In this document: piece by piece, positions 6,726-38,397 of the stretch
Layout: each line of letters opens with the position of its first letter
How positions within the stretch are numbered: position 1 is the stretch's first letter
Assembly: GCA_041671305.1 (NCBI GenBank)
Contig: JBAZBX010000001.1
Span: 40,821-104,820 of the forward strand
Direction of reading: 5' to 3'
Length of the DNA: 64,000 nt
DNA from: Patescibacteria group bacterium
Lineage (GTDB): Bacteria; Patescibacteriota; Patescibacteriia; 2-01-FULL-39-33
The notes under the pieces: generated by a model
Databases searched by the model: none
The model's input: the letters and a program-made list of their open reading frames with translations, nothing else
What the model was told of the DNA's origin: nothing
Translations under genes and position numbers: made by a program

Positions 6726-6879
6726 AATTTATATTATAAAAACCCAAGGATCTTCTTAGGTTTGTCTCTGCATTACTGCAGTATAATAGCATATTTTATA
6801 TAATCTTGCAACCACAAATCCCTGAAGCCCTAGAATACGCTTAAAATTTAATTTCAAAAATAGCGTAAAAAAAAGAGGG

Positions 6880-7320
6880 CCCGACGCGATGATCTTGGAG
6901 GGTGATCGCGTCGGGCGGGAGTTGGGACTCCGAGGGGGTTAGGTACACGACAAATTGACAATAGCGAGGGGGTGCTGGAAGAGGGTGTTCCTCTCGCCAT
7001 TACACAACTCGTCGTGCAAAAAAACTTTTTTGGAGGAAGGTGGACCGAAAAACAGCAATCACTCCCTTTTCATGCTAGTCGTCACATCACGCGCATTGTA
7101 CACAAAAAATGACTAGCATGTCACCGAATCGGTGATGTGGCGGGTGTTGTACACCACAGGATGATTCAACTAAATTCCGTCCACCTTCCTCACTACATAT
7201 ATGGCCGCCCTTATCATCAATCAACCGTTCCAACCGTTCGTGTTTCACAGACATAAGGGTCGAGCCAAGCCTCTTGGGATGAGGCATTTGGGGCTAAAGA
7301 AAGAACGACTCTAAAACAAT
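6880..7320. ncRNA. GC-rich, highly structured, apparently non-coding segment (candidate structured RNA of unknown class)
   Basis: About 55% GC in an AT-rich genome with almost no ORF. Hairpin 6883-6918. Long-range 13-bp helix GGAGGAAGGTGGAC (7031-7044) / GTCCACCTTCCTC (7178-7190). Crossing helices 7071-7079/7110-7118 and 7082-7089/7131-7138 form a pseudoknot. Confidence 0.3.
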
Positions 7321-7774
7321 TACATTATATTAAAATTAGATATAAAAGTCAAGATTTATACAACAAAATCTTTTTATTTCATTTTAAAAGCTAATTTAGA
7401 AGGTTAATTAGGCCAGCTATATCAAATTAACGATTAGTGTGCTAAGATTAAACTCTAATTAAGAACCTACGGGGAAATGGTCGTGACCACGTATTAAGTC
7501 CAGAAATGGATACTACTAGATACCAAATACCATGACAGAAGATACAACAGAAGAAACAACAGAGGAAACTCCTGAAGTTGCTACAGAAGAAAAAACAACA
7601 GAGGAAGCCGCTTCATAGACAATGAAAACGAAGCAAAAAAAGAAAAAATCCCCACTAAACTAGTGAGGCTTTTTTCTTTTGGGTAGAGAACTGGCTGAGT
7701 GAAACAAAATTTTCAAATTTTTGAGTGAGCCAAATTTGGGCTGGACTTCGGCGCTAAGCGCCGGAAATTCCGAA

Positions 7775-7892
7775 TGGCTGGGTGTTTATGAACAAATCCG
7801 AACCGAATTTAAACAAAAATCATGATCGGGCGGGCGGAATCCCCCCCAAACCCCTCCTTCCGCCCGACCTAAACATCTGGACGGCTGAGGCG
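7775..7892. repeat. 118-bp inverted repeat, left copy (IR-L)
   Basis: 100% identical to the reverse complement of 9326..9443. Contains an internal TCGGGCGG...CCGCCCGA hairpin. Confidence 0.9.
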
Positions 7893-7904
7893 AAATAGCA
7901 ATTT

Positions 7905-8951
7905 TCAATTTTTCTTTGGCGGCGAATTTTTTTCTCCTTCTTTAACTATTTCCCTTACTTCATTGTAACTTATCTGCCTTGGCCATAATAGATTGCCGTG
8001 AGCATCATAAATTGGCAGAAGAAAATCAACCCGGTCTCCATAAATCTTTCTCATTAATGTAGCTATTTCATTTGCTTTATTTTGTTTGCTTTCATCATCA
8101 TCAACTTCTTTATACCTATGTATTTTTCTTAAAACTTCTTGTGGGACATATGGTTGTTTTTTATATAAATTATCCATTTCCTCCTCTGTCTGTTCTGCCA
8201 TGGCTCTTATTACAATACCCTTAAACCGGTCTGGAGCAATTCGAAAAGACAAAGCGTAGCCCTCAGAATAGTCAGGAATCCTTCTGTCTCCTTCTTCAAA
8301 ATATTCTTCTCTTTCTGATCCTGGTCTAGCATGGGCTCCGAAAGTATTACTTTTATACTGTAATTTTTCTCTTTTGCCAAGGTCATAATCCAATGCATAA
8401 TTGGCAATTTCAGTATTTTCCTTAAAATCTGCTGTATCAAAAATTATTCCCAAGGAGGTTTGGCTTGTTCCAATGGGTCTAAACCAATGGGCGTCTTCGA
8501 TTTTTCTTAAATCCCGACCAACAATATTGAAAAAAACAACGGCCCCCATTTTTTTTCTAACAGCGCTAACCCAATCTTGTTCAGGACTGTTAGGATTCAA
8601 TTTTCCTAATAAACCCTTTCGAAGTATACCGCCTAATTTAATGGTGGAATTATCATCTTCAAGTATTCTAACAGAATGAAATCCTGTCCCCGGTTTATTT
8701 ATATCTTGTATTTTTTCCATTATTCTCTCAACCACTTCAGGTAGTAGTTCGGGAGGAATAGGGATGTCGGAATTATCAATATTTTGATCTGCATTTTCCA
8801 CGTCCAAAATATCGCTTTCGACTTGATAATCATCAGGAGAAAAATCCTCACCCTTCTCAGGATATTTTTCTTTCAATTTTTCTTGTAGCCTTTGGGCTTC
8901 TTTTAGAGCGTCATCGTTGTTTAATCGACCGCTTTCAAATCTTTTTTCCAT
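7905..8951 (-). CDS. Hypothetical 348-aa protein (cargo of the IR-flanked cassette)
   Basis: Long ORF 5 nt downstream of the XRE HTH gene on the same strand. No recognizable domain. Confidence 0.55.
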   Translation of the reverse strand: MEKRFESGRLNNDDALKEAQRLQEKLKEKYPEKGEDFSPDDYQVESDILDVENADQNIDNSDIPIPPELLPEVVERIMEKIQDINKPGTGFHSVRILEDDNSTIKLGGILRKGLLGKLNPNSPEQDWVSAVRKKMGAVVFFNIVGRDLRKIEDAHWFRPIGTSQTSLGIIFDTADFKENTEIANYALDYDLGKREKLQYKSNTFGAHARPGSEREEYFEEGDRRIPDYSEGYALSFRIAPDRFKGIVIRAMAEQTEEEMDNLYKKQPYVPQEVLRKIHRYKEVDDDESKQNKANEIATLMRKIYGDRVDFLLPIYDAHGNLLWPRQISYNEVREIVKEGEKNSPPKKN

Positions 8952-8955
8952 AAAT

Positions 8956-9162
8956 TTATTTCAATAACTCCCACGCCTCCACTCCTAAAGCGTGAGCTAG
9001 TCTATTTAAATTTTCTAATGTGGGATTAACTTGACCACTCTCGACTCGACATATATAGGCGCGATCTATTTTACTAGAACGAAAAACATCGCCTTGCGTA
9101 AGACTTTTTTCCTCTCTTATTCTCTTGAAATTATACGCTAATTTTTTACTTAATTTATGCAT
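8956..9162 (-). CDS. XRE/Cro-C1-type helix-turn-helix transcriptional regulator
   Basis: LTQGDVFRSSKIDRAYICRVESGQVNPTLENLNRLAHALGV, a classic HTH_3 pattern; 68 aa. Confidence 0.75.
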   Translation of the reverse strand: MHKLSKKLAYNFKRIREEKSLTQGDVFRSSKIDRAYICRVESGQVNPTLENLNRLAHALGVEAWELLK

Positions 9163-9245
9163 AGTTATCCACAGTCATTTTAACAATTATTGTATATCTT
9201 AACAATATTGTAGTATACTACAATATGTAAGTGAAATTTTGCATT

Positions 9246-9272
9246 AAGAAAAAGAAAAAGTTTGATTCTGGC
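9246..9272. repeat. 27-bp inverted repeat IR2-a (partner 9533..9559)
   Basis: AAGAAAAAGAAAAAGTTTGATTCTGGC is the exact reverse complement of 9533-9559. Confidence 0.85.
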
Positions 9273-9302
9273 CAAAATAAAGTTCGAGCCGATTTTTTTA
9301 AT
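9273..9302. repeat. 30-bp inverted duplicate (B') of the recombinase 3' coding segment 10901..10930
   Basis: CAAAATAAAGTTCGAGCCGATTTTTTTAAT equals the reverse complement of 10901-10930. Confidence 0.85.
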
Positions 9303-9325
9303 CTGGTTCTTTGGCGGTTTTATTC

Positions 9326-9443
9326 CGCCTCAGCCGTCCAGATGTTTAGGTCGGGCGGAAGGAGGGGTTTGGGGGGGATTCCGCCCGCCCGATCATGATT
9401 TTTGTTTAAATTCGGTTCGGATTTGTTCATAAACACCCAGCCA
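9326..9443. repeat. 118-bp inverted repeat, right copy (IR-R)
   Basis: Reverse complement is identical to 7775..7892. The outer end CACCCAGCCA resembles the tRNA-Gln 3' end CCCGCAGCCA. Confidence 0.9.
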
Positions 9444-9512
9444 GTTTCGTTTTTCATTTTTTAAAACCGAATCCCAACCGTTTTTTGGCTTAAATTCAAA
9501 TTTTTTGCCTTG
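9441..9512. repeat. 72-bp inverted duplicate (A') of the tRNA-Gln 3' end plus downstream flank (10931..11002)
   Basis: The reverse complement of 10931-10999 is identical to 9444-9512, and the CCA is also shared. Confidence 0.85.
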
Positions 9513-9574: not shown

Positions 9575-11062
9575 ATGAAATACTTTCTTTATGCCCGCAA
9601 GTCGACAGACGAAGAGGATCGTCAAGTTCTTTCAATTGAAGCCCAGCTCGCGGAGTTGAAGGAGTTAGCCGCCAAAGAAAAATTGGAAATTGCGGACTCG
9701 CTCTGCGAGTCCAAAACCGCCAAAGAACCAGGCCGAAAAATTTTCGGCGGAATGCTCGCTCGGATTGAAAAAGGTGAGGCCGACGGAATTTTAGCGTGGC
9801 ACCCAGATAGATTGGCCAGAAATAGCGTTGATGGTGGAAAAATTATCTACATGGTGGATATCGGCCAGATCAAAACGCTAAAATTCCCGACTTTTTGGTT
9901 TGAGAATACTCCGCAAGGGAAATTCATGCTCAATATCGCTTTCGGCCAAAGCAAATACTATGTTGATAATTTAAGCGAAAATGTTAAACGTGGTTTCAGG
10001 CAAAAGTTAAGGCGCGGCGAATATCCCAATAAAGCGCCCATCGGCTATCTTAACGACCGAACAGCTAAAACCGTGCTCATTGATCCTCTGCGCGCCAAGC
10101 TCGTGATAAAGATGTTTAAGATGTACAACACGGGAGAATTTTCGCTTAAATTTCTTAAAGATAAGTTTTGCGATATTGGCCTGACCAGCAAGCGCGGCAA
10201 AATCCTGACTGTCGGCATGATTTCTAACATATTGAATAATCCCTTTTATTGCGGAGTATTCAAGTTTAATGGCGAAATCTACCAAGGCAAGTACGAGCCA
10301 ATTATTTCCAAGAAGCTTTTTGATGAAGTTCAGGCGGTAATGAAAAACCGAGGACGGCCGCTCGGGCAAGACAAACACGATTATGCTTTTACTGGACTTA
10401 TGAAATGCAAGTGCGGCGCCTGCATTACCGCCGAACGGCAAAAAGGCCATATCTATTATCGCTGTACGAAAAAGCTTGGAGCCTGCGACGAAAAGTATAT
10501 CCGCGAAGAAAAACTGCTGGAGCAATTCCATGGCCTTTTTCAAAAAGTTTCTTTGCCAGATGACTGGATTGACAAGATGCTCGCTAAACTCGATGAGGAA
10601 CAAAAAAGCGACATGAAGTCATCGGTAGGTCTGATTGACGAGGTAAAAACGCAAATAGGAGCCATAGAGAGCAAGCTAGATAAGTTGCTCGATGATCGAT
10701 TAGAAGGATTACTCGATAAGGACGACTATTTGCGGAAGAAGGAACAACTCATCAATCAGAAAATTGCTTTTGAGGAGAAAATCCAGTCAATCAGGCAAAC
10801 GGGAAATAATTGGCTCGAACCGATGCGGGAATTCCTTTCCGCCAATAAACAAACCAAAAAAGTCGCCAATAGCGGCGACATTCTGGAAATCCGAGCATTC
10901 ATTAAAAAAATCGGCTCGAACTTTATTTTGCAAGGCAAAAAATTTGAATTTAAGCCAAAAAACGGTTGGGATTCGGTTTTAAAAAATGAAAAACGAAACT
11001 GGCTGCGGGACCTGGAGTCGAACCAAGATAACAGCTTTCAGAGAGCTGCGTCCTACCATTAG
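9575..11062 (+). CDS. Large serine recombinase (resolvase/invertase catalytic domain, recombinase domain and zinc-ribbon)
   Basis: YARKST catalytic-serine motif near the N-terminus; CKCGACITAERQKGHIYYRC zinc ribbon; 495 aa. The last ~20 codons are antisense to tRNA-Gln. Confidence 0.9.
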   Translation: MKYFLYARKSTDEEDRQVLSIEAQLAELKELAAKEKLEIADSLCESKTAKEPGRKIFGGMLARIEKGEADGILAWHPDRLARNSVDGGKIIYMVDIGQIKTLKFPTFWFENTPQGKFMLNIAFGQSKYYVDNLSENVKRGFRQKLRRGEYPNKAPIGYLNDRTAKTVLIDPLRAKLVIKMFKMYNTGEFSLKFLKDKFCDIGLTSKRGKILTVGMISNILNNPFYCGVFKFNGEIYQGKYEPIISKKLFDEVQAVMKNRGRPLGQDKHDYAFTGLMKCKCGACITAERQKGHIYYRCTKKLGACDEKYIREEKLLEQFHGLFQKVSLPDDWIDKMLAKLDEEQKSDMKSSVGLIDEVKTQIGAIESKLDKLLDDRLEGLLDKDDYLRKKEQLINQKIAFEEKIQSIRQTGNNWLEPMREFLSANKQTKKVANSGDILEIRAFIKKIGSNFILQGKKFEFKPKNGWDSVLKNEKRNWLRDLESNQDNSFQRAASYH

Positions 11063-11073
11063 ACGATCCCGCA
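11000..11073 (-). tRNA. tRNA-Gln (anticodon CUG)
   Basis: Manual fold gives U1-A72 acceptor pair, U8, D-stem GTCT/GGAC, anticodon loop CTCTGAA with U33 and A37, T-loop TTCGACT, discriminator G and an encoded CCA. Confidence 0.8.
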
Positions 11074-13244: not shown

Positions 13245-13330
13245 CTATGATACGTGAGTTGTTTATAAGTCATTCATATTTTACTAAGATTAAGACGATA
13301 AGTCAAAAATGCAAAACAACATAATATTGA

Positions 13331-13507
13331 AGCAAGATTGGGGGTTTGGGGGAAGCACCTTTCGCCAAAGCGCGAGTGTAAGCCGAACCTCAGCCAGCAG
13401 GATGAGGTGAGCGAAACGAAGCGCGACTAAGCAAGATAAAAAACACTCCGAGCATAAGGCGAAATTGCGTCCCCCAAAACCTTTGGTTCTTTCAGTTATG
13501 AAAGAAC
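13331..13507 (+). ncRNA. Copy 1 of a ~180-nt GC-rich structured element (candidate sRNA or cis-regulatory leader)
   Basis: Near-identical to 23770..23945. Terminal GGGGGTTTGGGGGA / TCCCCCAAAACC pairing, internal helices, and a 3' hairpin GTTCTTTC-agttat-GAAAGAAC. Confidence 0.45.
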
Positions 13508-13680
13508 ATAAATTAAACTTTTTTAAAAAATGGGTTGAATATAAGAGAAATTATCCAAAATTAGATAAAATATAGGATTAATACTTCCTATCTATTGACA
13601 AAAGTACAAATATATACTATATTATAGGGTCACAATGAGTGACGGAAGCACATCACAACCAAAAAGGAGCATTGACTGTC

Positions 13681-18808: not shown

Positions 18809-19430
18809 ATTCCTTTTCTGGATGTTTTGTAATTATCATTCTGTAATCTCTGCCGGGAACTGATTCCAACACAATATCGGCCTGTTCCCTAAAATCAGAA
18901 ATTATTTTTCTGAATGTTTTATCCTCTTGCAATAGAGAGAGTATAGGATAAAAATAAGCACTCCCACCTGGCTTAAGAGTTCGAATAACTTCACTAAAAG
19001 TATCCCTATATTCCTGCTCATGCGTCTGCAAAAAAAACGGTATTGCCAAATAAGATATTTCAAAGTCAAAAGTATCATCTTTAAATGGCATTTCCTGCAC
19101 TAATCCAGATATGACATCGCCATGATGCTTCTTTCTTTCGTTAGAACTAAATAATGTGCCCAAGGCTGGATTTAAAGATATCACCTCAATGCCGTGCTTT
19201 TCCGCCTCTTTGGAAAATACGCCCTCTGACCCGGAGCCAATATCTAATCCACACATACCCTTCATATCGTCGATTGGTAAATTAAGTATTTCACGAGTCT
19301 CCTCAAAGGACCAATTTGTTTGGGCTTCTCTTCTTTTAAGCGGATCCTTGAAATCTTCAATCCGAGTCTTTCTATTAAATGGCTTTTCTTCGTTGGTAGC
19401 TAAAAAACTAGTCTCTCTATTTTCTATCAT
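18807..19430 (-). CDS. Class I SAM-dependent methyltransferase
   Basis: Motif I LDIGSGSEG plus acidic motif II. Confidence 0.65.
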   Translation of the reverse strand: MIENRETSFLATNEEKPFNRKTRIEDFKDPLKRREAQTNWSFEETREILNLPIDDMKGMCGLDIGSGSEGVFSKEAEKHGIEVISLNPALGTLFSSNERKKHHGDVISGLVQEMPFKDDTFDFEISYLAIPFFLQTHEQEYRDTFSEVIRTLKPGGSAYFYPILSLLQEDKTFRKIISDFREQADIVLESVPGRDYRMIITKHPEKE

Positions 19431-20497
19431 ATATTTTTACAAACATTTTTTATATCTTTCAACGACTCCACTGTCACGAGCTGACTTCGCAATTCCTTGG
19501 CATTTTCCCAGCCCTTCACATACCACAGCAGATGTTTTCTCAACTCTATTATACCATGAGTGTCTTTGGATTTAAATGCCGCTTCGGCGTGCTGGATTAT
19601 GACCTTCTTAATTTTGGCTTTATCAAATTTCTGATATTTTCCCGTATTTAGATAATCCTTGATCTGCTTAAATATCCAAGGCTTGCCATAAACTCCGCGA
19701 GCAATGCCGAATCCATCAACTCCGGTTTTTTCCCACATGATTTTTGCATCCATAGGAACATTTATGCCACCATTTCCAAGTACTATGCCTGGAAATTCTT
19801 TTTTGATCTTTTTTATCATCTCATAATCAATCTCGGCATTAAACGGATTTTCATACGGCCGGCCGTGAATCATAATGGCGGAAATATTTAATCCTTTCAT
19901 TTTTTTGACAAAATCAAGCGCGGTTATAATCTTATTATCTTTTTTATAATTGTCATCCCGAGGGAGGATGTAATCAGCCGACCGTGGGGATCCCGCGGGA
20001 TTGCCACACTTCGCCCTTGAGGGCTCGCTCGCAATGACATTGATACTAGATCTTATTTTGACAGAAACTGGCAATTTTGTCCCCGAGAGAACCGCTTCTA
20101 CTATTTCTCTACATTTTTCTAAATCTCGCATCAAAGTCACCCCACCGCCATGTCCAGCAACTTTCTTGGCTGGACAGCCAAAATTAATGTCTATGCCATC
20201 AAAACCGGCCTTTTCTGCCAGTTGTGCCGCCTTAGTAAATTTCTCCGGATGTTTACCGAATAATTGAATTACAATCGGACGTTCATCTTTGGAAAATTTT
20301 AAAAATTCCAAAGTCTTTTTGGAATCATAGTGCAAACCGTCGGCCGAAACCATTTCCGTATAAACCACATCAGCGCCGTATTTCCTGCAGATTTGGCGAA
20401 AAGCCGAATCAGTCACTCCCGCCATAGGAGCAAGCGCTAGAATTGGTTTTTTCTTTAGTCCGCCTGTGGCAGAAAGTTTTGACCAAAAATTTTTCAT
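19427..20497 (-). CDS. tRNA-dihydrouridine synthase (Dus family) carrying an in-frame 30-codon insertion
   Basis: ALAPMAGVTDSAFR...FDGIDINFGCPAKKV...GGGVTLM TIM-barrel Dus motifs. The extra SINVIASEPSRAKCGNPAGSPRSADYILPRDDNYKK segment is encoded by the palindrome at 19951-20039. Confidence 0.85.
   Translation of the reverse strand: MKNFWSKLSATGGLKKKPILALAPMAGVTDSAFRQICRKYGADVVYTEMVSADGLHYDSKKTLEFLKFSKDERPIVIQLFGKHPEKFTKAAQLAEKAGFDGIDINFGCPAKKVAGHGGGVTLMRDLEKCREIVEAVLSGTKLPVSVKIRSSINVIASEPSRAKCGNPAGSPRSADYILPRDDNYKKDNKIITALDFVKKMKGLNISAIMIHGRPYENPFNAEIDYEMIKKIKKEFPGIVLGNGGINVPMDAKIMWEKTGVDGFGIARGVYGKPWIFKQIKDYLNTGKYQKFDKAKIKKVIIQHAEAAFKSKDTHGIIELRKHLLWYVKGWENAKELRSQLVTVESLKDIKNVCKNI
19951..20039. 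repeat. 89-bp GC-rich imperfect palindromic element inserted in-frame in dus (RPE/MITE-like)
   Basis: TGTCAT...ATCCCGCGGGAT...ATGACA. About 60% GC against AT-rich flanks. The length is a multiple of 3 and the reading frame is preserved. Confidence 0.6.
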
Positions 20498-20802: not shown

Positions 20803-22170
20803 TTATTTTTTCTTCAAATTATACCCTTCGGGAGTATCTTCAATAATATATCCGAGTTTATTTATCTCATCTCTTAACTCATCAGATTTCTTAAAATCCT
20901 TGGACTTCTTCGCTTCTATTCTCTGTTCGGCTAGATCAGTTACTTTTTGAGGGATTTCTTCTATCTCAATTTTATCCAAATTTAATCCTAAAACTCTATC
21001 AAAATCCAAAAGTGTGGCTTTCTTGTCTTCGTCGGCAATATCGCTTTTTATAACCTCCCAAACCAAGGCCATCACCTGTGGCATCGCCAAATCATCATTT
21101 ATTAATCCAATAAATTTATTCTGAAATTCTTTATTAATTTTTCCTACCTTATCAATTCCCGCTACAAAATCATTCAACTTCATTCTGGCTGTCTTGGCGC
21201 CTTCAAGCCCTGCCCAAGTGAAGTTCAATTGGCTACGATAATGCGATGTTAAAAATAAATATCTTAAATCAAGAGCCACGAAGCCTTTTTCTTCCAAATC
21301 CTGCAACCGATAAAAATTATTTTTTGACTTGCTCATTTTTTCACCTTCAACCATCAAAAATCTAGTGTGAAACCAATAATCAACAAACTTGACCCCATTA
21401 GCGCACTCGCTTTGAGCAATTTCACATTCATGATGCGGAAAAATATTATCCTCACCGCCAGTATGAACATCAAAGGTTTTTCCCAAATACTTCATGGACA
21501 TAGCACTACATTCAATATGCCAACCAGGAAATCCTTTATGGCCGAATGCATCCCACTCCATCTGTCTTTTTTCACCCTCAGCTGAAAATTTCCATAATGC
21601 AAAATCGGTTGGATTTTTCTTTTCCGGATTAATCTCCACTCTGGCGCCTTCTTTCAATTTATCCAAAGTATTGCCAGATAATTGGCCATATTGTGAAAAC
21701 TTACTAGTATCAAAATAAATACCGTCGGATGTTTGATATCCATAACCCTTATCAATCAAGACTTGGACTAATTCAATCATTTCTTGAATGTGATCAGTCG
21801 CCTTGCAAATTACATTCGGTTCCAAAAAATTCAACTTTTTTCTATTGGCCAAATAAATCTCAGTAAAATATTCAGCAATTTCATGAGCGCTTTTACCGCC
21901 AGCTTTGGCCGCTTTTTCCAATTTATCCTCACCTGTATCGCCATCAGAAGTTAAGTGCCCCACATCGGTAATATTCATTACGTGCCCAACATTATATCCG
22001 CTATATTCAAAGACACGACGCAAAATATCGGAATTAAAATAATTCCAAGCGTGCCCCAAATGATCATAGCTATAAACGGTCGGACCGCAAGTATACATGC
22101 CAACCTGGCCTTTTTTGAGCGGTTTAAAGTCTTCTTTCTTTCTACTTAAGGTATTGTAAATCTGAAGCAT
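20803..22170 (-). CDS. cysS: Cysteine--tRNA ligase
   Basis: HLGHA (HIGH) and KMSKS motifs with a CysRS Zn-binding cysteine pattern; 455 aa. Confidence 0.95.
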   Translation of the reverse strand: MLQIYNTLSRKKEDFKPLKKGQVGMYTCGPTVYSYDHLGHAWNYFNSDILRRVFEYSGYNVGHVMNITDVGHLTSDGDTGEDKLEKAAKAGGKSAHEIAEYFTEIYLANRKKLNFLEPNVICKATDHIQEMIELVQVLIDKGYGYQTSDGIYFDTSKFSQYGQLSGNTLDKLKEGARVEINPEKKNPTDFALWKFSAEGEKRQMEWDAFGHKGFPGWHIECSAMSMKYLGKTFDVHTGGEDNIFPHHECEIAQSECANGVKFVDYWFHTRFLMVEGEKMSKSKNNFYRLQDLEEKGFVALDLRYLFLTSHYRSQLNFTWAGLEGAKTARMKLNDFVAGIDKVGKINKEFQNKFIGLINDDLAMPQVMALVWEVIKSDIADEDKKATLLDFDRVLGLNLDKIEIEEIPQKVTDLAEQRIEAKKSKDFKKSDELRDEINKLGYIIEDTPEGYNLKKK

Positions 22171-23553: not shown

Positions 23554-23769
23554 CGCTTGTTCCTCCTTTGGTTGTGCGACGGAATCTCGTATGTTTTGAG
23601 AGCACGGCTGCTCTAAGGAACTATTCCTCGGAAAAGCAGTTAATTTAACGACCTTACCGAGAAATGGTTTCATATTATAATATAATAAATTTAGACAAAT
23701 GTCAAAATTCTCGTAAGTTGTAATTAAATATTTTTATATTATGTATTTTTTAAAAAGCACAAATATCTA

Positions 23770-23945
23770 AGCAAGATTGGGGTTTGGGGGAAGCACCTTT
23801 CGCCAAAGCGCGAGTGTAAGCCGAACCTCAGCCAGCAGGATGAGGTGAGCGAAACGAAGCGCGACTAAGCAAGATAAAGAACACTCCGAGCATAAGGCGA
23901 AATTGCGTCCCCCAAAAGCTTTGGTCCTTTCGCTTACGAAAGGAC
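23770..23945 (+). ncRNA. Copy 2 of the ~180-nt structured element, about 75 nt upstream of metA
   Basis: About 98% identical to copy 1 over the body. The 3' hairpin GTCCTTTC-gcttac-GAAAGGAC carries compensatory T>C and A>G changes relative to copy 1. Confidence 0.45.
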
Positions 23946-24019
23946 AGAAGAAATATTTGACCAAATCCGGAAACCATTGATATAATTAACTAGATTTAGT
24001 TAATAATCCATTATTCATT

Positions 24020-38213: not shown

Positions 38214-38397
38214 ATTTGTAATAATTAAAATTACGAATTAATAATTGAAAAAATAAAAACTGTGGTTTTCCACAGGGTAAAATAGCTAAATCTAGCTAAT
38301 TCCTCGGTAGGTCTTATGTCTTTAATGACGCCTACTGTCTGTGGAAAATTAAGTTATGCATAAATTATAACAAAATATAAAGAAAAGTCAACATTTA

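Follow-up and report, generated by a model that had tools for sequence, protein, structure and literature searches.

The question raised by this locus is how a GC-rich palindrome of 89 nt came to lie within the coding sequence of a tRNA-dihydrouridine synthase (Dus) gene, and whether it represents mobile DNA. The DNA analysed here is a stretch of 64,000 nucleotides from a Patescibacteria bacterium (henceforth the window), in which an intact open reading frame (ORF) at 19427..20497, on the minus strand, encodes a DusB-like protein of 356 aa whose match to Pfam family PF01207 scored 236.6 bits (curated cut-off, 20.4; E=4.8e-70). The imperfect palindrome, recognised by its sequence, its inverted repeats and its match to a family profile, occupies positions 19951..20039 and is described in the coding orientation (minus strand). 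The evidence indicates that this 89-nt segment is very probably a copy of a mobile palindromic repeat that was inserted in-frame in the Dus gene and is tolerated there as a passenger loop.

The region that separates the 'SVK(L/I)R' strand from the 'TALDF' helix differed in length between the window protein and its homologs. It comprised mostly 27-35 residues in the best 120 homologs, which were Dus proteins of Patescibacteria (in several cases assigned by the source to Candidatus Buchananbacteria), as compared to 63 in the window protein, and the typical empty loop in the alignment of homologs read 'SSIKKDGxxV'. No insert was present in the closest orthologs, P0002-P0007 (76-67% amino acid identity), the nearest displaying the short loop 'SSIKNGDKI', and the five nearest relatives of the window lineage on a neighbour-joining tree were all empty. 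Aligned at the DNA level with the closest ortholog without insert (P0002, 76% identical, locus L003), which reads AGA TCA AGT ATA AAA AAC GGT at the insertion point, the window gene showed a clean 96-nt gain at 19946..20041 (minus strand), made up of the 89-nt palindrome plus 7 nt and encoding the 32 residues NVIASEPSRAKCGNPAGSPRSADYILPRDDNY (residues 153-184, NVIAS...RDDNY). With 96 nt gained in all and no stop in the frame that is read (V-I-A-S...R-D-D), the Dus gene stays open, in agreement with the original prediction of about 30 codons added without breaking the frame. The Pfam Dus match fell into two stretches around the insert, the first ending at residue 153 and the second starting near residue 200.

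Among the best 120 homologs, the window insert was shared only by P0001 (98% identical; one JGI and one ENA assembly, 3300014208 and ERZ27249449), which keeps both the insert and an intact ORF. Over the gene 17-19 nt differ between the two, and two of these changes lie within the element, one restoring the common GAAGCGTGG motif in P0001 and the other being a G-to-C change in the central palindrome (19990-20001). As read from this ortholog alignment, which had been proposed as a check, the insertion is shown to be a recent, lineage-specific gain.

On the coding strand the segment 19951-20039 reads TGTCATTGCGAGCGAGCCCTCAAGGGCGAAGTGTGGCAATCCCGCGGGATCCCCACGGTCGGCTGATTACATCCTCCCTCGGGATGACA. It carries TGTCAT at 19951-19956 and ATGACA at 20034-20039, and its GC content was 0.59-0.66 as compared to 0.387 for the whole window; the extent, ends, GC richness, centre and encoded peptide originally quoted for the palindrome were all reproduced from the sequence and its translation. 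In coding orientation the element runs from TGTCATTGCGAG to CTCGGGATGACA. The left end (20028..20039, codons V-I-A-S) is an exact match to the canonical family terminus, whereas the right end (19951..19962, TGTCATCCCGAG on the plus strand), as defined by alignment of the copies, is a variant with two changes relative to the 12-nt canonical CTCGCAATGACA, which places the element in an asymmetric subfamily of the TGTCATTGCGAG...CTCGCAATGACA family. The same right-end asymmetry was common to the window copy, L051, both copies of L048, and L016, with L047 carrying the close variant CTCAGGATGACA. The hairpin apex is formed by the perfect palindrome ATCCCGCGGGAT (19990..20001), as indicated by the sequence, the inverted repeats and the fold, and the outer arms are 77% complementary over 22 nt. 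A nested mini-hairpin, GCCCTCAAGGGC, identified from the alignment of copies, lies in the left arm (20013..20024, minus strand) and reads GCCGTAATCGGC in L051, where both sides are changed and the pairing is kept.

The RNA fold of the element had an energy of -37.4 kcal/mol (z=-2.47), and 3 of 200 shuffles equalled it. A hairpin in the mRNA, as originally proposed, was predicted, but a weak one for this copy. No U-tract follows the hairpin on either strand, so that the Dus gene contains no terminator-like site and a terminator role of the hairpin was ruled out. Rfam gave no match for the element at gathering score, chance-level matches alone being obtained at E values of 3-10.

A scan for the TGTCATTGCGAG...CTCGCAATGACA frame in one genome per species, with the 12-mer termini required by the pattern, returned at least 119 genome stretches holding at least 130 copies, 66-96 nt in length. 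The matches listed came from Bacteroidota, Chloroflexota, Planctomycetota, Pseudomonadota, Nitrospirota, Verrucomicrobiota, Cyanobacteria, Firmicutes, and Patescibacteria (in this last case Buchanan-, Woese- and Daviesbacteria), and included cultured Mucilaginibacter and Flavobacterium along with metagenome-assembled genomes (MAGs) of other phyla. A profile built from 130 copies matched the window element end to end, model positions 1-83 corresponding exactly to 20039-19951 (E=1.4e-5). Independently of the pattern scan, the TGTCATTGCGAG terminus was present in Dus-loop and other copies of related contigs, and the DNA of Dus orthologs with long loops showed palindromes bounded by TGTCATTGCGAG...CTCGCAATGACA or ...CTCGGGATGACA. 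The window element thus shares with the family its inverted termini 66-96 nt apart, a GC-rich hairpin interior, and dispersed copies at non-homologous loci.

The closest dispersed copy was found in L051, from another Candidatus Buchananbacteria MAG, where the match to the window element extended over 101 nt at 88% identity (E=6e-28). This copy (7107-7196, 88.9% identical to the window copy) lies at a non-coding locus otherwise unrelated to the window, and stops occur in most of its reading frames. Within the 64 kb, the element was the sole case of a TGTCAT...ATGACA pair spaced 50-130 nt, and the sequences of the other GC-rich islands of the window were unrelated to it. This sole pair, together with the homology provided by the L051 match and the end-to-end profile match, indicated that the element is not a product of chance.

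Copies of the family also occurred in-frame in other genes. In L048 a copy at 8800-8894, encoding VIARERSDRGNPVAKTRDPHAMPLRGSARDD, lies within uvrB (7340-9379), the product of which has 679 aa as compared to 612 aa for UvrB of L172. Remnants of the family were present in-frame at a single loop of cysS in L050 (279-338), L171, and L174 ('SLRAKIPTLRSGQAPQSH', 'PSLRLGQAPQSH', and 'SLRGTKQSH'), whereas the window's own cysS (20803-22170) was without them. Overall, ORFs of 150 aa or more, in some cases of 670-910 aa, extended across 13 of 130 listed genome copies. The suggestion that the palindrome might mark a mobile repeat family was thus supported by the dispersed copies (at least 130), by the L051 copy, and by those in uvrB and cysS. 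The Dus and uvrB copies of L048 were 95.8% identical to each other, as compared to 83% for the orthologous Dus copies of L048 and L047 and 58-63% between the window copy and other Dus copies. Copies group by genome and not by locus, as would be expected of a subfamily with local activity; gene conversion would be a less simple explanation.

The family frame was also found in 49 stretches of viral contigs, several of which hold 2-3 copies. In 12 IMG/VR contigs (L178, L179, L185, L186, L190, L193, L195, L202, L203, L209, L213, and L219) a shared protein of about 494 aa adjoins a family copy; in L202 it reads through the copy ('...SAAKQSQGIATSPRFIGAPRNDTSLSLRG...'). The plasmid search returned one unannotated match, in a Novosphingobium megaplasmid, to a family consensus, and the phage search with the window copy gave no match. 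At the protein level, phmmer with the 32-aa insert peptide against 1.84 billion representatives yielded nothing at E<=0.001, a result of little informative value given a query so short for the database size, and a word-indexed search with a 40-aa query around the insert peptide returned no candidate. The terminal sequence was found in no paper, giving only unrelated primer matches, and no literature on palindromic or MITE-like (miniature inverted-repeat transposable element) inserts in bacteria of the candidate phyla radiation (CPR) was found; coverage of the literature was incomplete in both cases, so that the family may already be described.

The Dus loop was occupied in many of the related bacteria. 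Taking as filled those loops with more than 36 residues between two anchors, 32 of the 121 orthologs counted carried an insert at this position. The inserts of 11 of these 32 were read at the DNA level and all were palindromes, seven belonging to the family of the window element and four to three other palindrome types. In six lineages (the window/P0001 pair, P0022, P0009, P0034, P0010, and P0008) copies of the TGTCATTGCGAG family sat in one frame and at one nucleotide position, 2 nt past 'SSI', and the family also occurred in the opposite orientation in L016. The loop of P0012 and P0014 held a TGTCATTCCCGC...GGGATGACA family, and the insert of P0023 was a long, perfect palindrome translated as 'PPLYERGGQEGF'. 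Short perfect GTAG-tagged palindromes, GTAGAAACGTTGCATGCAACGTTTCTAC and GTAGAGACGGGGCATGCCCCGTCTCTAC, were found in ORFs of L012 (6582-6609, in the Dus loop) and L011 (3395-3422, in another ORF). Fitch parsimony on the neighbour-joining tree gave at least 22 state changes at the loop, a rough count given this type of tree, with at least 5 for the TGTCATTGCGAG type alone. The contrasts between nearest neighbours do not depend on deep branches: several filled genes had an empty nearest neighbour at a distance of 0.05-0.08, and P0008 and P0014, at a distance of 0.09, carried different palindrome families. The comparison showed that the Dus loop has been occupied repeatedly by several palindrome families in related bacteria, a recurrence not noted in the original prediction.

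At the protein level, a second and weaker insertion zone was noticed near the Dus N-terminus, from 'FWxKL' to 'PILAL', in P0043, P0047, P0009, P0022, P0036, P0045, and P0083, with peptides that resemble translated palindromes ('GLRFRVKPGMTGAGTGFP', 'PNPPFRKERERK'). P0039 displayed a further insert in the middle of the protein ('CHLSRRAKADAPLAMT'), also at the protein level.

The host protein retained the features of a Dus enzyme. Its best solved relatives in a PDB sequence search were 1vhn, E. coli DusB (6ei9), and Thermus Dus (3b0v), and all columns invariant across 56 aligned Dus sequences were conserved in it, including C108, K147, and R149. The AlphaFold2 model obtained with the 56-sequence alignment had a pLDDT of 87.9 and a pTM of 0.86, and Foldseek comparison with the three solved relatives gave TM values of 0.80-0.87 (normalised to the target). 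The TIM-barrel plus helical-domain fold, the catalytic Cys, and the Lys/Arg strand were thus all present, and the enzyme with its enlarged loop presumably remains active. The insertion site lies four residues after the K147-x-R149 strand. In the model, residues 157-186 had pLDDT values below 50 and the insert was bracketed by two short strands (151-153 and 190-192); the structure prediction proposed as a further check accordingly depicts the insert as a disordered surface loop on a confident barrel. K147 and R149 align with Lys132 and Arg134 of Thermus Dus in the PDB sequence alignment, and the insert would therefore leave the barrel on its substrate-facing side.

Several observations weigh against reading the segment as a copy of a mobile element. 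The window copy is a poor hairpin, with an RNA z value of about -2.4 to -2.47 as compared to a family median of -6.6; relative to shuffles, 98% of family members fold more strongly, and its DNA fold (z=-0.84) was equalled by 42 of 200 shuffles. By itself the palindrome of this copy is only modestly beyond chance, and the case for a real element therefore rests on homology. No second copy was detected in the 64-kb window by blastn-short, a 3-mismatch pattern, the family profile, or the TGTCAT/ATGACA pair scan, so that the search for other copies suggested by the original prediction succeeded within the lineage (L051, and uvrB and cysS of sister contigs) but not elsewhere in the window. The exact junction is uncertain because the closest empty-site ortholog is only 76% identical, and 89 nt is not a multiple of 3, leaving 7 nt beyond the palindrome. 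The codon differences between the window gene and P0001 (8 synonymous and 7 non-synonymous) are too few to indicate purifying selection. Around the family copies there was no consistent target-site duplication, exact flanking duplications of 2-9 nt being at chance level, nor any flank consensus; when offsets were allowed, a weak excess of 6-8-nt direct repeats appeared near the junctions (5 seen vs. 0.7 expected), corresponding to about 4-12% of copies. No protein family recurred within 1.2-2 kb of the copies, where the largest cross-locus cluster comprised 5 of 119 genome loci and no transposase was identified.

An autonomous insertion sequence with the same ends was likewise absent from the 8-kb flanks of the 119 genome and 49 viral loci, these flanks being the only regions searched. 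We infer that the element moves as DNA by means of an enzyme encoded elsewhere. A hairpin-recognising enzyme acting on single-stranded DNA would be a plausible mover, consistent with both the shape of the element and the missing duplications.

The modest fold, with a DNA energy no better than that of many shuffles, is what could be expected if the segment were not mobile DNA but an ordinary loop peculiar to the lineage, or a GC-rich stretch that arose by chance and is palindromic in appearance only. This possibility is already refuted by the match in L051, at an unrelated locus of another genome, by the end-to-end agreement with the family profile, by a GC content of about 0.6 in a window of 0.39, and by the absence of the segment from the closest orthologs. 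It is also very improbable that Dus lost its activity through the insertion and is now a young pseudogene, or that the segment is excised from the transcript or the protein like an intron or intein. Direct support for this is lacking, apart from the closeness of the insertion to active-site residues, and the ORF is intact in three independent assemblies differing at 17-19 nt, with all invariant residues retained. An intein or intron was ruled out by size and by the lack of any motif or family match: 32 aa are far too few for an intein and Pfam gave no intein domain, and, chance-level matches aside, no Rfam intron or other RNA family appeared even at E values up to 10.

The recurrence of inserts at one loop admits two further explanations. 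A single ancient insertion in an ancestor of the clade, followed by many precise losses and by concerted evolution (gene conversion from other copies in the genome, by which each copy left would have come to resemble the subfamily of its own genome), would mean that the window copy was inherited. Copies of the TGTCATTGCGAG type (A type) in six lineages share both nucleotide position and frame, and the flank reads 'ATTAG' in both P0008 (A type) and P0014 (B type), as against 'ATTAA' at empty sites; palindromes are, moreover, prone to deletion. We nevertheless consider this history improbable, since the tree events that it demands (at least 22) would be mostly exact in-frame losses, empty loops are uniform ('SSIKKDGxxVT') and scar-free, at least four unrelated kinds of palindrome occupy the site with the A type in both orientations, and the nearest relatives of the window lineage, five in number, are all empty. 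Alternatively, the insert may have been co-opted, the loop altering tRNA binding or specificity or the mRNA hairpin tuning Dus expression, in which case selection would explain the recurrence. The start of the loop only four residues past K147/R149, on the substrate-facing side of the barrel, the filling of about a quarter of the orthologs, and the pairing-preserving double change in the mini-hairpin between the window copy and L051 all speak for such a role. It remains distinctly improbable in view of insert sequences that are unrelated across lineages, with varying charge and lengths of 38-83 aa between the anchor residues, and of the disorder predicted for the region. Furthermore, 2 of the 7 amino acid differences from P0001 fall in the insert, which makes up 9% of the protein, the same elements occupy non-coding loci and other genes, and the hairpin of the window copy is weak.

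The insertion of a mobile repeat, as the preferred explanation, would have proceeded as follows. The element would be a small, non-coding palindromic repeat of MITE/REPIN-like type with termini TGTCATTGCGAG...CTC(GCA/GGG)ATGACA, which probably entered the Dus coding sequence in a recent ancestor of a species-level lineage and landed in the short loop between strands 151-153 and 190-192. The result would be a Dus protein with a 32-residue, probably disordered, surface loop, and the insert would persist because it is tolerated and not because it is needed. Repeated occupation of the loop would then reflect insertions that occurred independently and were sieved by selection for a site that tolerates them, with a preference for the A-tract or for pre-existing hairpins as a possible aid. 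It is unlikely that the loop is more than a tolerant site, that is, an actively targeted integration hotspot for unrelated palindrome families. In that case TGTCATTGCGAG (in both orientations), TGTCATTCCCGC, 'PPLYERGG', and short GTAG hairpins would all be aimed at the same few nucleotides, and the cue could be local A-tract or hairpin-prone DNA, or a resident palindrome attracting the next one. If true, such a hotspot together with a multi-phylum family would point to an undescribed, site-selective and hairpin-dependent mechanism of DNA insertion that would routinely remodel CPR housekeeping proteins.

Among known systems, the nearest in behaviour are the Rickettsia palindromic elements (RPEs), reportedly described as RPE-1 to RPE-9 by Ogata et al. 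in 2000 and by Claverie and Ogata in 2003. Both are short palindromic selfish repeats of small genomes of host-dependent bacteria, often in-frame in housekeeping genes that are still functional (tRNA-related, DNA-repair), with the encoded peptide in surface loops. They differ in host, in size (89 nt for the window element vs. roughly 100-150 nt for RPEs), and in distribution, RPEs being confined to one genus whereas the window family is spread over many phyla and viral contigs. The resemblance to RPEs initially pointed out held, therefore, as an analogy of behaviour (an in-frame palindrome in an open gene), likened without recourse to RPE sequences, and not as family membership, the window element matching a multi-phylum family. 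To our knowledge, RPEs are not described as colonising a single loop repeatedly with members of several families.

RPEs and intragenic repetitive extragenic palindromes (REPs) are in-frame palindromic inserts in genes that stay functional (PMC3733652); intragenic REPs sit in-frame in tRNA synthetase, DNA-repair, and tRNA-modification genes, and in two Xanthomonas species roughly one and the same position of recB is occupied by REPs that differ from each other (Di Nocera et al. 2013, PMC3733652). The window element resembles REPs and REPINs, which are mobilised by RAYT (IS200/IS605-like tyrosine transposases), in being a GC-rich hairpin repeat without obvious target-site duplications, inverted doublets forming long hairpins, and the GTAG-tagged palindromes of L012 (Dus loop) and L011 are classical GTAG-REP-like units in relatives. 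In contrast, the window element has no GTAG or CGTC end tag but conserved TGTCATTGCGAG termini, neither RAYT nor any other recurrent gene was found near copies, and there is one copy per 64 kb. GTAG stood at the start of none of 131 copies and inside the arm in 19, and CGTC was found in 3; the window copy has GAAG there.

With bacterial MITEs (Correia/NEMIS, ERIC, RUP, Nezha; PMC10969869) the element shares a size below 100 nt, the lack of coding capacity, dispersed copies, terminal inverted repeats starting TGT...ACA, and occasional in-frame gene insertion. Unlike them, the window family displays no consistent target-site duplication and no parent insertion sequence in the flanks of its copies, and the window element is one hairpin throughout instead of two terminal repeats around an unrelated core. 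Yeast mitochondrial GC clusters are likewise GC-rich palindromic mobile DNA in an AT-rich genome, some of them in-frame in var1 and giving rise to length polymorphism, but they belong to an organelle, are an unrelated sequence family, and prefer other targets. In behaviour the window element matches RPEs and intragenic REPs; it lacks the GTAG tag of REPs and the duplications of classical MITEs.

Two points are more unusual here: several palindrome families have colonised a single Dus loop repeatedly, and a family with conserved 12-nt ends and no known mobilising enzyme is very widely distributed. Patescibacteria genomes, though very small and streamlined, carry selfish palindromic DNA in housekeeping proteins, namely Dus in the window and UvrB and CysS in sister genomes. 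In-frame inserts of this kind split domain matches, add to the lengths of proteins, and give rise to spurious 'hypothetical' peptides. As markers of loops in which about 30-80 extra residues are tolerated, they are also of use in protein engineering. With termini conserved across many phyla and in viral contigs, and no transposase found near its copies, the family offers a good handle for finding its mover.

Other repeats were observed in the window. An inverted repeat of 123 nt, 99% identical and partly GC-rich (7775-7897 and 9321-9443), flanks an ORF of 348 aa (7905-8951, minus strand) with no Pfam match. It may represent an inverted duplication, or a mobile element bounded by long terminal inverted repeats. 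Two pairs of sequences, of 75 nt (9438-9512 vs. 10931-11005) and 30 nt (9273-9302 vs. 10901-10930), are exact reverse complements and duplicate a segment that overlaps the 3' end of a tRNA-Gln gene (11000-11073, minus strand) and lies just downstream of it, in what looks like an attachment-site duplication from an element integrated beside the tRNA. A GC-rich direct repeat of 199 nt, 93% identical and apparently intergenic (13313-13511 and 23753-23949), had no Rfam match at gathering score, and neither did a strong GC-rich intergenic hairpin with 12-bp arms, GCCCGACGCGATGATC...GATCGCGTCGGGC (6879-6916), match any Rfam family. An ordinary feature, the ribosomal protein L10 leader (RF00557, 57.6 bits), was located at 38245-38362 on the minus strand.

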